Positions 5,748 to 10,218 of a stretch of DNA of 64,000 bases are shown piece by piece. The DNA is from Patescibacteria group bacterium (GTDB lineage Bacteria > Patescibacteriota > Patescibacteriia > Patescibacteriales > UBA12465). The notes beneath the pieces were generated by a model, which made no database searches, was not told the DNA's origin, and worked only from the letters and a program-made list of their open reading frames with translations. Where the stretch lies: contig JBBQHF010000005.1 of the NCBI GenBank assembly GCA_038323715.1, positions 2,621 through 66,620 of the forward strand, given 5' to 3'. Position 1 is the stretch's first letter; the number at the start of each line of letters is the position of its first letter. The translations under genes and the position numbers were made by a program.

Positions 5748-7307
5748 ATGCATCAGAAAAAATTAATGTTTTGGGCAACTTACTTTATAACAGTAGTTTA
5801 TCTACAGTTGTTTAATATTATTGCGGCTCACGCTTTTTTTAATTTATTTTTTGCAATTTTTGTCTTCTTTCCTGTTTCAGAAAAATTGAAACACAAAGTC
5901 TTAATTGAAAAAATAAGAAATATTATTGCTATTATTTTAGGATTGGTTCTTTTATGGCACGAGTCGTATCTACCTTCGTTCTGGGTTTTTTGGAATTTTT
6001 TAGTCAGCCCCGAACTTAGGCCCAGTTGGAGTTTTGTTTTTAGATTTATATTATCGGTAATTAATTTAAAAGTTTTAATCGCTATAATTTTAAGTTTGGC
6101 TGCCGCCTATTTTCTCTCTTATACGAAGCTTAAAAAATATTTTTTCTTATTTTTTGTAGTCTGTTTTTTGATTATTGGTTTTACGGAAAAAAAATTAACG
6201 CAAAATGATTTGCTGGGTAATTTCTATCAGGATGAGCAGGCAAAAATAGTTAATTTTTCCAACATCAATAATAATGATTATGATATTGTCGTTTTACAAT
6301 TATGTTCTTTTGCTTGGGCCGATTTCAAATATTCAGATTTTGATATGAAGCCTTTCTTGAAGCAGTTTGATTATATTTTTACCGATTTTAATTCGGTGGC
6401 TTCGTATAGTAACCCAGCGGTTTTAAGACTACTGCGTTCAACTTGTGGTCAAGTTTCTCAGGGAGATCTTTTTGTCACTGCCAATAATAGCTGTTATTTA
6501 ATAGACAATCTAAAGAATCTCGGATACTCCACCTATACGAGCATAAATCATGACGGGGTCTATTCTGGTTTCACCGATACAATTATAGACACAGGTCGAG
6601 CAGATAAGCCTTTGGATAATTCTCAATTAACGCCGGCTGAAATCAGTTTTGATAATAGCCCAATTTACGACGACCTGGATGCTTTGAACCTCTGGCGGGA
6701 AGCTCGTAAAAAAGATAATCGTCAAAACTCATTTCTGTTTTATAATAGCATAACTCTTCACACTGGCAGTAAGTACGTTGATAGTTCTTACTTATCTAGC
6801 GTGGACCAATATAATGAGTCACTTAGTCGGCTTACTCAAGATTTAGATAGCTTCTTTGTTGAATTAAAAAAGAGTGACAAAAAAACGATTGTCATTATTT
6901 TAGGTGAGCACGGAGCGGCTCTACAGGGCTCGGTAATGCAACCAGGGACCGTTAGAGAGATTCCTTTGCCAGATATTACCCAAGTACCCGTAGTGGTTAA
7001 ATTTTTCGGTCCAGATTTCAATACTAAAAATGAGGGACAGGGAGTTATTATTGATAAACCTACAAGTTATTTTGGTTTAGCAACCTTGCTATCGGAACTC
7101 TTAAGGCTGAATCCTAGTAGCCGTGAAAATTTAACCAGTAATCAGTTAATAAATAATATTCCAGAAACACCTTTAGTTTCGGAAAATCAAAATGGTATTG
7201 TTTTACAAAACAATCAAGGCTTATATTATAAACTTAATAAATATACAACCTGGGATAAACTAGATGATAGCCTGCGGGTCAAAGCTTCTGATTATTTAGT
7301 TAAATAA
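5748..7307 (+). CDS. bcsG: Cellulose phosphoethanolamine transferase BcsG homologue
   Basis: Polytopic N-terminal TM region (LLWHESYLPS) plus an alkaline-phosphatase-like domain. Several blocks match E. coli BcsG/YhjU as I recall it. These are DIVVLQLCSFAWAD, FNSVASYSNPAVLRLLRSTCGQ, NSCYLIDNL, SPIYDD, ILGEHGAALQG..REIPLPDITQVPVVVKFFG and PLVSENQNG. Confidence 0.8.
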   Translation: MHQKKLMFWATYFITVVYLQLFNIIAAHAFFNLFFAIFVFFPVSEKLKHKVLIEKIRNIIAIILGLVLLWHESYLPSFWVFWNFLVSPELRPSWSFVFRFILSVINLKVLIAIILSLAAAYFLSYTKLKKYFFLFFVVCFLIIGFTEKKLTQNDLLGNFYQDEQAKIVNFSNINNNDYDIVVLQLCSFAWADFKYSDFDMKPFLKQFDYIFTDFNSVASYSNPAVLRLLRSTCGQVSQGDLFVTANNSCYLIDNLKNLGYSTYTSINHDGVYSGFTDTIIDTGRADKPLDNSQLTPAEISFDNSPIYDDLDALNLWREARKKDNRQNSFLFYNSITLHTGSKYVDSSYLSSVDQYNESLSRLTQDLDSFFVELKKSDKKTIVIILGEHGAALQGSVMQPGTVREIPLPDITQVPVVVKFFGPDFNTKNEGQGVIIDKPTSYFGLATLLSELLRLNPSSRENLTSNQLINNIPETPLVSENQNGIVLQNNQGLYYKLNKYTTWDKLDDSLRVKASDYLVK

Positions 7308-7313
7308 ATCAAA

Positions 7314-7343
7314 ATAAAATGGCCATTTAGATGGCCATTTTTG
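7314..7343. terminator. Bidirectional hairpin terminator between convergent genes
   Basis: AAATGGCCAT-TTAG-ATGGCCATTT perfect hairpin flanked by an A-run and a T-run. Confidence 0.75.
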
Positions 7344-7532
7344 TTATATTAATTTCATTAAATCTTTTACTATTTTGGCGTGTCTTACTTCATCCGCTTT
7401 TATTTTTTCTGCAATTTTTATAGCCTCAGGCTGATCCATTATTTTTAACAAATCAACCATTTCTTGTTTCATTCCTAGTTCAACCTCGTAAAGTTCTTGA
7501 AAATATTTTAGATAATCTTTTTTATTAAACAT
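7344..7532 (-). CDS. Two-helix E...ExxH mini-protein (half-ferritin-like), second of a tandem pair
   Basis: 62 aa. LYEVELGMKQEM then KADEVRHAKIV. The start lies 4 nt after the upstream stop. Confidence 0.4.
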   Translation of the reverse strand: MFNKKDYLKYFQELYEVELGMKQEMVDLLKIMDQPEAIKIAEKIKADEVRHAKIVKDLMKLI

Positions 7533-7779: not shown

Positions 7780-7780
7780 A

Positions 7781-9319
7781 TTATGTATAATTTAATATTT
7801 CTTTTTCATTTGGCTTTGGAATCTTGTTTAGTCTAAAAATATTGGATAATAGTAAAATATGATAAGCGCACCAAAACATGTTTATGCCAATAGCGTAATG
7901 GTTTTCGTCATATCGGTAGGCGCCCTTTATTATCGCTGCTAAATTAAATAGGATAATTAATATCCAGGGCCATAAACGCCAAAAAGGCATAATATCGCTC
8001 TTACCCTTATCCGTTATTTGAAAGGCAATTTTTTTATTTAAAATAGCTGATATGGTTGACTGCATTAAAATGGGGAAACTTAAAGAACTCATAATATTGC
8101 CAATAAAAATATCTTTTGCTGAGTAATTGCGGCCTTTCATCGTGGCGTAGAATATAGTTAAGGTGAGAAAATAATAGGGAACGAAAGTAAGCAAATAAAA
8201 TAGGGGGCTCGCAAAGTAGGATGGGATGTTAAACAATAGGTATAGGGCGGGGCAAATTATGAGTAAGAAGAAGGACCAGCCAGTGAAATAATATGTCGCC
8301 GATAAAAAATATTCCCATACTTGCATAAAACTTAATTTTAAACGACCGCTATAAACCTCAGAAGTTAATTTTCTAACCACTCCAACTGTTCCCGCTGACC
8401 AACGGTACTGCTGCTTAAAGTAGGCTGGTAGTGTTTCTGGCGCCATCCCAAAAACCCTGACATGATTATAATAAATTGATCTATAGCCGAGCGCATGTAT
8501 TTTTACGGAAGTTGCAAAGTCTTCCGTCACCGAGTTTTCGTCAAAACCGCCGACCTTCTTTAAAACTTCAGTTTGCATTAAAAAATTAGTTCCACAACAA
8601 AACATAGCATTGCTAGCGCCTTTACCTTCGCAAATATTTTCAAAGAAGATTGATTGTTGCAGGGCGGCGCCTTTGGCGATTGGACCCACGTTGAAATTAG
8701 TATATAGTTGAGGCGTTTGAATAAAGGCAATGTTGTTTGAATATTCTGCTAAAGCCACAGTTTCCAACAGAAAATCCGGCATCGGATTTTGGTCAGCGTC
8801 AAAGATGCAATAATATTTTGATTCTATATTGGGAAGTATTTTATTAATAATTTCAGCCTTATTTTTAGAAGGATGCTCTGGTACAAAATGTTCTAACCCA
8901 TATTTTTGGGCCAGCTTTTGATTTTCAGCTATAAATTGAGGGTCAGAACCGTCTAAAAAAATCATGCGCTTGGCGGCGTAATTAAGAGATTTTATGCATA
9001 TAAAAGTTGCTTCCAGAATTTTTAAAGGTTCATTTCTTCCAGGAACGAGTACGGTTACGCTCGGTAAATTTTTTAAATCTAGTTTTGCTTTTCTGTGATA
9101 GTTAACCCGGGGTTTATTTAAGCGAATAATATTTGAGATAAAACCTAAAGACTGCAGAACTGCGTGAGACTCCGCCAATAGCAAAAGGGCACCAAATAAT
9201 GAATTAACAAAGCCATAGCTTTGGCTATAGTAAATATAAACTCGTAAGCCAAAATAAAAAAATAAACTTATTAAAGCTACCCAAGAAATAATAATAATTA
9301 ATCTCTTTCTCTTTGTCAT
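7781..9319 (-). CDS. Processive family-2 glycosyltransferase, cellulose-synthase (BcsA/CelA)-like, no PilZ domain
   Basis: TM helices flank a GT2 domain carrying LDGSD, FDADQNP, FIQTPQ, FCCGTNF, TEDFATS and QQYRWSAG (QxxRW). At 512 aa it ends right after the C-terminal TM bundle. Confidence 0.75.
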   Translation of the reverse strand: MTKRKRLIIIISWVALISLFFYFGLRVYIYYSQSYGFVNSLFGALLLLAESHAVLQSLGFISNIIRLNKPRVNYHRKAKLDLKNLPSVTVLVPGRNEPLKILEATFICIKSLNYAAKRMIFLDGSDPQFIAENQKLAQKYGLEHFVPEHPSKNKAEIINKILPNIESKYYCIFDADQNPMPDFLLETVALAEYSNNIAFIQTPQLYTNFNVGPIAKGAALQQSIFFENICEGKGASNAMFCCGTNFLMQTEVLKKVGGFDENSVTEDFATSVKIHALGYRSIYYNHVRVFGMAPETLPAYFKQQYRWSAGTVGVVRKLTSEVYSGRLKLSFMQVWEYFLSATYYFTGWSFFLLIICPALYLLFNIPSYFASPLFYLLTFVPYYFLTLTIFYATMKGRNYSAKDIFIGNIMSSLSFPILMQSTISAILNKKIAFQITDKGKSDIMPFWRLWPWILIILFNLAAIIKGAYRYDENHYAIGINMFWCAYHILLLSNIFRLNKIPKPNEKEILNYT

Positions 9320-9321
9320 AA

Positions 9322-10218
9322 TTACTCGCGTTTACAGACTGGCTTCGCTAAGGCAATCATAGCGTCCACTGCCCATTCAGAATAGTTTATAAAGTAGTCA
9401 ACTTGAGATAATAAATATTCTAACGGGTCTCCGCAATCTAAATAATGACCGTCAGAAATAATTTTAGCTAATAAACCGGTGCTTTCCTTCATTTTATTTA
9501 TTACATCAGTTAAGCGAATTTCGCCTTTTGGACCCGGTTTCACTTCATCTAAAGCTTTAAATATGGCTGGCGTTAGGATGTAAGTACCATGAGTGGCGTA
9601 ATTTGATGGCTCGGTTCCGAAAGCGGGCTTTTCTACTATTTCAATAATCTCTTTTATGTCTAATTCTCCTTTTATATCTTTTAAATTTGCCATACCATAT
9701 TTTCGTCTTTTGTTTGGGTCTTTAATTTCAACAGCGGAGATTACCGGTTTGCCATATTTATAATAGGCATCTAGGCATTGTGCGGCGCGCGGCTTTAGTT
9801 TGGAAAAAATTATTTCATCAGACCAAGTGAGTAAAAATGGTTTATCTCCAACTAAGTGTCTGACGGCGCTAAGAAAACCACCATTACCATTTGGTTCTTG
9901 AGTATAGACGAAATCAAAAGTGGCCATTTTGGAGATGGCTCTTAATTCATTACCTTTCTCTGTTCCGCTTACCTGGGTAATATAATTTTCCAAAAGTTCA
10001 TTAGGCGCAAAAAAGCTTTCAATTGATTGTTTGTGATGTGAAACGATAAAGATGATATTGGTAATTCCGGAAGCGACTAACTCTTCAACGACATGAAGAA
10101 TTACTGGCTTGTCGCCAAGAGGGAACATTTCTTTAGGAATACTTTTTGTGCTCGGCAAGAATCTCGTTCCCCAGCCTCCAGCTGGGACGACTGCCGTAGT
10201 TATTTTTTCAATTGGCAT
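9322..10218 (-). CDS. galU: UTP--glucose-1-phosphate uridylyltransferase
   Basis: AVVPAGGWGTRFLPSTKSIPKEMFPLGDKPVI is the GalU signature. 298 aa. Confidence 0.9.
   Translation of the reverse strand: MPIEKITTAVVPAGGWGTRFLPSTKSIPKEMFPLGDKPVILHVVEELVASGITNIIFIVSHHKQSIESFFAPNELLENYITQVSGTEKGNELRAISKMATFDFVYTQEPNGNGGFLSAVRHLVGDKPFLLTWSDEIIFSKLKPRAAQCLDAYYKYGKPVISAVEIKDPNKRRKYGMANLKDIKGELDIKEIIEIVEKPAFGTEPSNYATHGTYILTPAIFKALDEVKPGPKGEIRLTDVINKMKESTGLLAKIISDGHYLDCGDPLEYLLSQVDYFINYSEWAVDAMIALAKPVCKRE

Follow-up and report, generated by a model that had tools for sequence, protein, structure and literature searches.

A compact BcsA-like synthase, two conserved mini-proteins and a BcsG homologue encoded at one locus of a Patescibacteria genome

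A stretch of 64,000 nucleotides from the genome of a Patescibacteria group bacterium (GenBank assembly GCA_038323715.1, contig JBBQHF010000005.1, positions 2,621 to 66,620; hereafter the window) carries at positions 5748-10218 five genes, which encode a GalU-type uridylyltransferase, a BcsA-like processive glycosyltransferase of family GT2, two mini-proteins of 80 and 62 aa (mini80 and mini62) and a homologue of the phosphoethanolamine (pEtN) transferase BcsG. Bacterial cellulose-type secretion is understood almost wholly from the proteobacterial BcsA-BcsB systems, which are switched by cyclic di-GMP (c-di-GMP) via a PilZ domain, and the locus represents a simple system of four or five small genes in which the gating of a minimal synthase can be studied. 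The invariant core of this system is formed by the GT2 synthase together with mini80 and mini62, to which BcsG is an optional add-on. The gene identities, domain losses and synteny reported below are assigned with high confidence.

Gene content and gene products of the locus

The four genes on the minus strand are arranged in the order galU (9322..10218), GT2 (7781..9319), mini80 (7537..7779) and mini62 (7344..7532), with intergenic gaps of 2, 1 and 4 nt according to the list of open reading frames (ORFs). The bcsG gene (5748..7307) is located on the plus strand and is convergent to this operon. A bidirectional intrinsic terminator (7316..7341, AAAATGGCCAT-TTAG-ATGGCCATTTT), consisting of a perfect 11-bp stem and a 4-nt loop with A/T runs on both sides, separates the convergent stop codons of mini62 and bcsG, is recognised on either strand and is common to the synthase operon and bcsG. 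A further terminator on the plus strand (5650..5681; 13-bp stem, followed by a T-run) belongs to the gene upstream of bcsG, so that bcsG is a transcription unit of its own. Upstream of galU a sigma-70-like promoter candidate is present on the minus strand (10248..10277, TTCATA-18-TATAAT with an extended -10 TG), which is a consensus match only; promoter-like sites were not enriched over shuffled sequences in the AT-rich locus region, and the evidence for the galU promoter is weak. The five ORFs of the initial annotation, their coordinates and gaps as well as the shared hairpin terminator were reproduced, and the motifs quoted there (LDGSD, FDADQNP, FIQTPQ, FCCGTNF, TEDFATS, QQYRWSAG, LCSFAW, SVASYS and GEHG) were all found in the translations.

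Regarding the first gene of the operon, the 298-aa product was assigned as a UTP-glucose-1-phosphate uridylyltransferase of the GalU type, i.e., the enzyme of UDP-glucose supply; the best match was TIGR01099 galU with 217 bits, which is below the trusted cutoff of 326.8 bits, and NTP_transferase yielded 91 bits.

The 512-aa GT2 protein consists of a BcsA core with six transmembrane (TM) helices, a glycosyltransferase domain, interface helices and the gating loop FQITDK. The best NCBIfam match was CelA with 203.6 bits; it extends over positions 69-558 of the 714-position model and thus ends before PilZ, whereas PgaC and NodC yielded 73.8 and 25.1 bits, respectively. In a search of the PDB sequences the protein aligned to residues 85-555 (of 728) of Rhodobacter sphaeroides BcsA and to residues 228-685 of Escherichia coli BcsA, and the motifs LDGSD, FDADQ, TED, QQYRW and FCCGT as well as the gating loop aligned with those of BcsA. 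PilZ is absent (no Pfam match in the GT2, and the model stops about 15 residues past the last TM helix), and so are the BcsA N-terminal domain and TM1-2, the alignment with E. coli BcsA beginning only at residue 228. The AlphaFold2 model (predicted local distance difference test score (pLDDT) 84.4, predicted TM-score 0.85) has the six TM helices and, compared using Foldseek, the BcsA fold, with a GT-A domain, interface helices and the TM3-8 channel. The top match was E. coli BcsA 9b8v_E (TM-score 0.85, root-mean-square deviation 3.3 Å), followed by R. sphaeroides BcsA 4p00_A (0.80) and plant CesA (0.65-0.70, E about 1e-14); hyaluronan synthases were far behind (about 0.5), and barley CslF6 ranked far lower than BcsA. 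A synthase of poly-N-acetylglucosamine, chitin or hyaluronan is ruled out by the profile scores and the fold ranking. The initial annotation of the protein as a BcsA-like synthase without PilZ is thus borne out, and among GT2 families it groups with the cellulose synthases by profile, PDB sequence search and fold. The score on the BcsA equivalog TIGR03030, however, is far below threshold (203.6 bits versus a cutoff of 699.1 bits) and neither PilZ in the GT2 nor a BcsB partner in the scanned window was found, and this BcsA-like core is better described as a separate family. Its members are about 505-525 aa in length and form a separate and tight group with at least 39% identity across phyla.

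The 519-aa product of bcsG belongs, as judged from its sequence, to the BcsG family. Pfam CBP_BcsG (PF11658) yielded 389.4 bits (gathering score 24.8), compared with 30.7 bits for Sulfatase; the score on the NCBIfam equivalog TIGR03368 (379.6 bits) was slightly below the cutoff of 410.2 bits, as expected of a distant orthologue, and the protein aligned to the solved E. coli BcsG structures with an E value of 2.7e-75. In E. coli BcsG, Ser278 is the nucleophile, and Cys243, His396, Glu442 and His443 are zinc and acid-base residues. All five are kept in the window protein (C186, S221, H338, E387 and H388), and these positions are near-invariant among 47 BcsG sequences. The earlier identification as a BcsG homologue thus holds against a generic sulfatase or LTA-synthase (lipoteichoic acid synthase) type. 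The protein has four to five N-terminal TM helices and an extracytoplasmic domain of the alkaline-phosphatase fold, with almost no linker (N-linker) in between: in a hydropathy scan the hydrophobic segments extended over residues 13-151 approximately, and the alignment of the catalytic domain begins at residue 153. By this crude measure the N-linker comprises about 0-5 residues in the window protein, 0-2 in the clade of the Candidate Phyla Radiation (CPR), 8-9 in Elusimicrobia and 24-48 in proteobacteria. The CPR BcsGs form a clade of their own in a neighbour-joining tree (all trees were calculated by neighbour joining or the unweighted pair group method with arithmetic mean, lack support values and are rough guides only). 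The length of the N-linker is known to vary within the BcsG family (2026 preprint, 10.64898/2026.09.23.753746), so that a short one is no bar to membership. According to the same preprint, BcsG seems restricted to Gram-negative bacteria, a range which is here extended to Patescibacteria.

Neither mini80 nor mini62 matched any Pfam family, and no signal peptide, TM helix or hydrophobic segment was found in either protein by a hydropathy scan; both are therefore regarded as cytosolic. Mini80 was modelled with AlphaFold2 as a helix-loop-helix hairpin (pLDDT 92; helices 2-40 and 45-78), with the conserved residues E23 (96%), H33 (97%), S62 (88%) and H65 (99%) and a conserved FWSG turn (73 sequences). 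Mini62, likewise a predicted soluble helix-loop-helix hairpin, has conserved D6, Y10, E18 (96%), M21, E48 (96%) and H51 (94%) in about 70 loci. The two are distant paralogues as judged from their match in hhalign (probability 82%, E value 1.1e-5), in which E23, S62 and H65 of mini80 were aligned with E18, E48 and H51 of mini62. The spacing of the conserved polar residues can be read as a and d positions of heptads. Among the PDB sequences, the mini62 profile matched the Due Ferri designed di-iron peptides (5c39, E value 1.5e-8; also 1mft, 1u7j, 1y47 and 1ec5), bacterioferritin (1.7e-6), the ferritin-like di-iron protein TM1526 (9e-6) and, further, symerythrin, EncB, acyl-ACP (acyl carrier protein) desaturases and manganese catalase. 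One homologue yielded sub-threshold matches to COQ7, Ferritin_2 and Rubrerythrin, and mini80 a sub-threshold match to the EncB profile (17.5 versus 90 bits). E18...E48-x-x-H51 of mini62 corresponds to the E...ExxH ligand motif, i.e., to a half-site of a di-iron-carboxylate four-helix bundle, which is present in part in mini80 (E23...S62-x-x-H65).

The designed peptide DF1 and EncFtn form their metal site across a dimer interface. In a similar way, the paired hairpins of mini80 and mini62 might form a four-helix bundle with an asymmetric Glu/His metal site at the interface, and a metal-binding heterodimer has somewhat better than even prospects of being the correct reading of the two sequences. 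As in the half-bundle di-iron proteins (DF1/DF2, EncFtn/EncB, bacterioferritin, rubrerythrin and symerythrin), the chain of mini62 is a helix-loop-helix of about 60 residues with E...ExxH, and its hairpin can be regarded as a natural counterpart of the Due Ferri peptides. In contrast to these proteins, the putative pair consists of two distinct paralogous chains instead of a homodimer, mini80 has E...SxxH, the extra His33 and the FWSG turn, and the pair is genetically tied to a polysaccharide synthase and, in some lineages, fused to PilZ or GGDEF, with no encapsulin or iron-storage context.

Conservation and distribution of the GT2 module

Relatives of the locus were collected by a GT2-anchored pattern scan with one genome per species, which yielded 407 relatives; the best 80 loci were analysed, of which 75 were informative (single loci are denoted by L and a number). 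At least eight phyla occurred among the best 80 of the 407 loci (Patescibacteria, Elusimicrobia, Omnitrophota, Planctomycetes, Latescibacteria, Sumerlaeota, Fibrobacteres, Verrucomicrobia and others). Of the 75 informative loci, 72 (96%) encode both mini-proteins directly downstream of the GT2 according to local profile searches, and the genes were mostly overlapping or nearly touching. A GH26 hydrolase gene lies between GT2 and mini80 in 47 loci, all non-CPR, whereas GalU adjoins the unit, without GH26, in 16 loci, all CPR-like; nine loci have neither, and GH26 is absent from the CPR loci, the window included. A reverse, mini80-anchored scan of metagenome contigs yielded 29 loci, with a GT2 upstream in all informative ones but two. 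An exhaustive search of 1.84 billion proteins with the single mini62 sequence yielded 54 cluster representatives, which with few exceptions are 62-70 aa in length; domain fusions were not found in this search and were seen through synteny alone. The co-occurrence, the reverse scan and the small number of representatives identify the mini-proteins as specific partners of the GT2 rather than general small proteins. The 80-aa and 62-aa accessory genes of the initial annotation are thus real and conserved. No prior description of the GT2 family, as represented by the 407 species-level genomes, was found.

Fusions of mini62 were observed in several lineages. In ten loci from Omnitrophota and Planctomycetes the mini62 homologue has a C-terminal extension of about 100 residues, which is PilZ according to Pfam in the two loci checked (28.6 and 35.2 bits, threshold 22.5); the c-di-GMP motifs RxxxR and [DN]xSxxG are both kept in eight of the ten. 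One Planctomycete locus (L085) encodes a fusion of the mini62 domain with TM-HAMP-GGDEF (GGDEF 159 bits). PilZ was found on neither GT2 nor mini62 in CPR and Elusimicrobia. An extra conserved GT2 C-terminus of about 92 residues (L043, L049, L052, L056, L063-L065, L070, L072, L076, L080 and L082) never occurs together with a PilZ-fused mini62 (12 versus 11 loci, mutually exclusive). It could not be recognised as a PilZ domain that swaps with mini62-PilZ (hhalign probability 8%, no c-di-GMP motifs, no Pfam PilZ match).

Regarding bcsG, the CPR loci in which it adjoins the module are the window, L001, L008, L012, L091, L093, L094 and L103/L104; those placed by GT2 clustering are all within the GT2 subclade of the window (at least 59% identity). 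In L012 and L103/L104 the order BcsG-GT2-mini80-mini62-GalU is realized on one strand. The five-gene neighbourhood first noted in the window therefore recurs in related CPR genomes, at times as a same-strand operon. An adjacent BcsG was also found in Elusimicrobia (L020, L022, L034, L037, L077 and L087), in loci which also hold a second GH26 and a signal-peptide protein of about 270 aa. BcsGs with the shortest linkers, those of Elusimicrobiota included, have been described as 'free-standing' and may have other substrates (10.64898/2026.09.23.753746); the short-linker BcsGs of Elusimicrobia and CPR reported here stand beside a non-canonical synthase. Other short-linker BcsGs adjoin a canonical BcsA-PilZ (L089 and L090), and the short-linker class as a whole is thus not generally free-standing.

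Three side observations were made at the surveyed loci. A family of signal-peptide proteins of about 265 aa without a Pfam domain ('p270') accompanies BcsG in diderm lineages (L087 11988-12797, L090 9551-10339 and L089 9701-11401), beside the GT2-mini-protein module in Elusimicrobia as well as beside canonical BcsA-PilZ elsewhere. The family is missing from the CPR loci and is possibly a component of the envelope or outer membrane that is linked to BcsG. L088 (404-10355) has a different non-canonical arrangement, with two tandem BcsG genes, a ManC-like nucleotidyltransferase, BcsB and a GT2 of 623 aa whose N-terminus carries a c-di-GMP-binding MshEN domain in place of PilZ. In a Parcubacteria genome (GW2011; L003 9560-9703 and L004 3956-5115) the mini80 homologue is shortened to 47 aa, with an IS110 transposase behind it, apparently a disrupted module.

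Polymer, acceptor of BcsG and role of the mini-proteins

The adjacency of GalU in the CPR loci and the BcsA-type motifs point to a glucan made from UDP-glucose, and a beta-glucan is the probable product. The GH26 partner of the non-CPR loci has as its nearest solved relative the GH26 module of Clostridium thermocellum 'Endoglucanase H' (E value 2e-40), with mannanases at about 1e-7; we take this module to be the lichenase CtLic26A. As cited by later papers, CtLic26A was characterised as the C. thermocellum GH26 lichenase in a 2005 study, and a separate lichenase branch within GH26 is shown in later papers. Mannan, suggested by the name GH26, is ruled out as the product, the enzyme being of the lichenase branch and the CPR loci carrying GalU. 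Cellulose and a mixed-linkage beta-1,3/1,4-glucan cannot be told apart from sequence. Of the cellulose-like locus initially annotated, the BcsA-type synthase and most likely the beta-glucan stand, whereas cellulose itself, given the lichenase-like GH26 elsewhere, is not established.

On balance, the locus is explained best, though by a modest measure of confidence, as a minimal, synthase-dependent module for the secretion of a beta-glucan by a CPR bacterium with a single membrane. GalU would supply UDP-glucose, and the 512-aa GT2 would polymerise glucose and export the chain via the channel formed by its own six helices, with no need of BcsB, like plant CesA and RiGT2 of Romboutsia ilealis. 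BcsG, anchored beside the GT2 and with its catalytic domain kept at the outer membrane surface by the almost absent linker, would move phosphoethanolamine from phosphatidylethanolamine onto the emerging chain; that the BcsG of the window decorates the GT2 glucan in this manner is considered rather likely. In the E. coli system, three BcsG copies are brought in by the N-terminal domain of BcsA, and a linker of 48 residues enables the catalytic domain to get past the BcsB crown to the chain (PMC11470070). As the window system has neither this domain nor BcsB, and presumably lacks a periplasm, a short-linker catalytic domain beside the channel exit is geometrically reasonable. The locus thereby also bears on how BcsG might work without the recruitment apparatus of E. 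coli, and a modified glucan coat would be a candidate for the attachment of CPR bacteria to host cells.

The mini-proteins, in the same explanation, would be co-translated with the synthase and pair in the cytosol into a heterodimeric four-helix bundle, the interface of which holds a Glu/His (di-)metal site. The bundle would act on the cytosolic face of the GT2 as a regulatory subunit, the role of PilZ in BcsA. Fused to a c-di-GMP receptor or synthase and always found beside a PilZ-less GT2, the mini62 module is read as a cytosolic regulatory subunit; that the pair regulates the synthase in place of PilZ is possible, with the odds slightly against it. In CPR, where neither protein carries PilZ, control would be exerted by metal, redox state or O2 instead of c-di-GMP, and the locus bears on whether metal or redox chemistry can replace a nucleotide second messenger. 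The independence from c-di-GMP which the initial annotation had considered is consistent with the absence of PilZ from GT2 and mini62 in CPR but remains conditional, as a trans-acting receptor may be encoded elsewhere in the genome. More tentatively still, mini80 and mini62 could represent a novel type of regulatory subunit that acts in trans on processive GT2 synthases, a split heterodimeric di-metal bundle that gates the synthase depending on whether it is assembled or on its redox state (levels of iron, O2 or oxidant) and predates or substitutes for PilZ; some lineages would have added PilZ or a diguanylate cyclase, whereas CPR would use the pair alone, to the effect of a pEtN-decorated beta-glucan coat made independently of c-di-GMP, and the Elusimicrobia BcsGs with short linkers that are termed 'free-standing' would belong to the same synthase system.

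Several observations weigh against this explanation as a whole or in part. Genes of phosphatidylethanolamine synthesis were not seen in the window, and CPR bacteria may lack a synthesis of their own. A GT2 without detectable mini-proteins within 7 kb occurs in three of the 75 informative loci (L025, L029 and L074, from Verrucomicrobia GWF2_51_19, Staskawiczbacteria and a Desulfobulbales metagenome-assembled genome (MAG)). The mini80 profile matched nothing meaningful among the PDB sequences, Foldseek searches of its model against the PDB yielded only generic helical hairpins (all E values above 0.3), and mini80 has Ser in place of the Glu of ExxH, so that the site need not be a canonical di-iron one. 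The lichenase-type GH26 partner points to a mixed-linkage glucan over cellulose, BcsG is present in a minority of the module loci and forms in the window a convergent, terminator-bounded unit of its own, and a shortened N-linker in Salmonella BcsG reduced or abolished pEtN transfer (10.64898/2026.09.23.753746).

If the polymer is a mixed-linkage beta-1,3/1,4-glucan or another non-cellulosic beta-glucan, which is a serious though less than even possibility, the module is functionally kin to the rhizobial BgsA and to RiGT2, and the polymer changes while the overall mechanism does not. To our knowledge, BcsG is found only together with cellulose, which counts against such a product. So do the best matches of the GT2 by profile, sequence and fold, which are all to BcsA, with barley CslF6 far lower, and the absence of GH26 from the CPR loci including the window. 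On the other side, the partner GH26 of the 47 non-CPR loci is nearest to the C. thermocellum lichenase and is neither a GH8 BcsZ nor a mannanase, and RiGT2, a BcsB-less GT2 of similar size with a short PilZ from a Gram-positive host, makes mixed-linkage glucan; according to its authors, models cannot separate cellulose synthases from mixed-linkage glucan synthases (PMC10374906). The convergent orientation and separate terminators in the window, together with the many module loci that lack BcsG, would also fit a BcsG that is a mere neighbour of the synthase and transfers a phospholipid head group to another acceptor (a surface glycan, lipid or protein). This would agree with the promiscuity of alkaline-phosphatase-family transferases, the other substrates argued for very short-linker BcsGs and, as the main argument, the loss of transfer in short-linker Salmonella constructs (10.64898/2026.09.23.753746). 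It is nevertheless an unlikely outcome, as the adjacency to the non-canonical GT2 module recurs in two distant phyla, bcsG is on the same strand directly upstream of GT2 in L012 and L103/L104, and the short-linker BcsGs beside BcsA-PilZ in L089 and L090 indicate that a short linker does not equal a free-standing enzyme.

Instead of being regulators, the mini-proteins could serve purely as structural assembly factors, or else as a mini-ferritin or small di-iron enzyme with a function in oxidation, iron storage or oxidative stress. The closest analogues by sequence, i.e., bacterioferritin, EncB, symerythrin, desaturases and manganese catalase, are ferroxidase or di-iron catalytic scaffolds, and Streptomyces CslA, which works with the metallo-oxidases GlxA and LpmP, is a precedent for redox enzymes in PilZ-less systems. 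A structural role finds a parallel in RiGT2, in which deletion of PilZ abolished activity though no interaction with c-di-GMP was detected (PMC10374906), so that such modules may be structural. An enzyme or iron store is difficult to reconcile, however, with a cytosolic location, the polymer being outside the cell, and a general iron protein with the 96% co-occurrence with one GT2 family and the scarcity of mini62 (54 representatives in 1.84 billion proteins); the fusions to PilZ and HAMP-GGDEF are typical of signalling modules. A role other than regulation is accordingly rated as improbable.

Compared with the type II Bcs systems of E. coli and Salmonella (BcsRQABEFG-C, pEtN cellulose), the window shares the BcsA-type GT2 with the full motif set and fold, the catalytic Cys, Ser, His and Glu-His set of BcsG with a multi-TM anchor and an external domain, and UDP-glucose as the likely substrate. 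It differs in that the synthase lacks PilZ, TM1-2 and the BcsA N-terminal domain, which recruits BcsG (PMC11470070), in that no BcsB, C, Z, E or Q was found in the window scan (see below), in an N-linker of about 0-5 versus 48 residues, in the single-membrane host and in the two hairpin proteins of di-metal type, which are not known from any Bcs system. RiGT2 resembles the window GT2 as a compact BcsA-like GT2 without BcsB in a monoderm, but its C-terminal PilZ is essential for activity (PMC10374906), whereas the window GT2 has none; the lichenase-type GH26 partner of the GT2 family would fit the mixed-linkage product of RiGT2 and BgsA. BgsA has a C-terminal c-di-GMP site of its own (PMC5567048), which the window GT2 lacks. 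By description, both RiGT2 and BgsA are without BcsG or mini-proteins.

The Streptomyces CslA-GlxA(-LpmP) system is similar in its PilZ-less cellulose-synthase-like GT2, its monoderm host and its metalloprotein partners instead of BcsB and BcsC; GlxA and LpmP, however, are copper enzymes of large size located outside the cell, in contrast to the small mini-proteins, which are predicted to be cytosolic and of the di-iron-carboxylate type. BcsG is absent from the Streptomyces system. We know of no counterpart of the mini-protein pair in the Bcs, Pga, Alg or hyaluronan systems, and the regulatory module is the part that could be new in kind. Literature searches for BcsG in Patescibacteria, for cellulose synthases with GH26/PilZ or ferritin-like proteins and for CPR cellulose synthases yielded nothing relevant, and a search for cellulose synthase in Omnitrophota yielded only a paper on the ComFB c-di-NMP receptor.

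Host and surroundings of the locus

The closest relatives of the locus proteins are from MAGs labelled Patescibacteria or Candidatus Falkowbacteria, in line with the initial guess of a CPR-like host. A Pfam scan took in 46 of the 48 window ORFs of at least 150 aa and found no BcsB, C, Z, E or Q and no PilZ, GGDEF or EAL, small subunits such as BcsF and BcsR being beyond such a scan. The earlier statement that no BcsB-, C-, Z-, E- or F-like gene is nearby thus holds for the first four, the 63-aa BcsF being too small for the ORF scan. CBM_BcsB was matched neither in these large ORFs nor in the related CPR loci L001/L002. A ParA at 46305-47069 had a weak match to the BcsQ model and was rejected as BcsQ: it matched AAA_31/ParA far better and adjoins ParB, and is thus assigned to chromosome partitioning.

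Divergent from galU, the plus strand encodes a 180-aa protein with a PAS domain and a coiled-coil tail (10273-10815), a possible sensory input near the locus; a second PAS protein is encoded at 20084-21619. In the related locus L001, however, the neighbour of galU encodes a 153-aa product without a Pfam match. A cyclopropane-fatty-acid synthase (CMAS, 273 bits) is encoded about 1.4 kb upstream of bcsG (3226-4344, plus strand); its substrates are membrane phospholipids, which is of note since BcsG needs a phospholipid donor. Surface-polysaccharide genes of the Wzx/Wzy type are present at 33446-35665, 40931-44610 and 59615-62130 and comprise a Wzy_C/TPR protein, a Bac_transf priming transferase, several GT4 enzymes and a Polysacc_synt flippase. 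With this separate gene set at least one other glycan is probably made. The plus strand further encodes a 1103-aa protein (37139-40450) with a C92 papain-like amidase, lamin-tail and LamG/ConA-like lectin domains, a possible surface or host-interaction protein, and its gene is directly followed by an RNase P RNA gene (class A, 174 bits) at 40501-40906 on the same strand.

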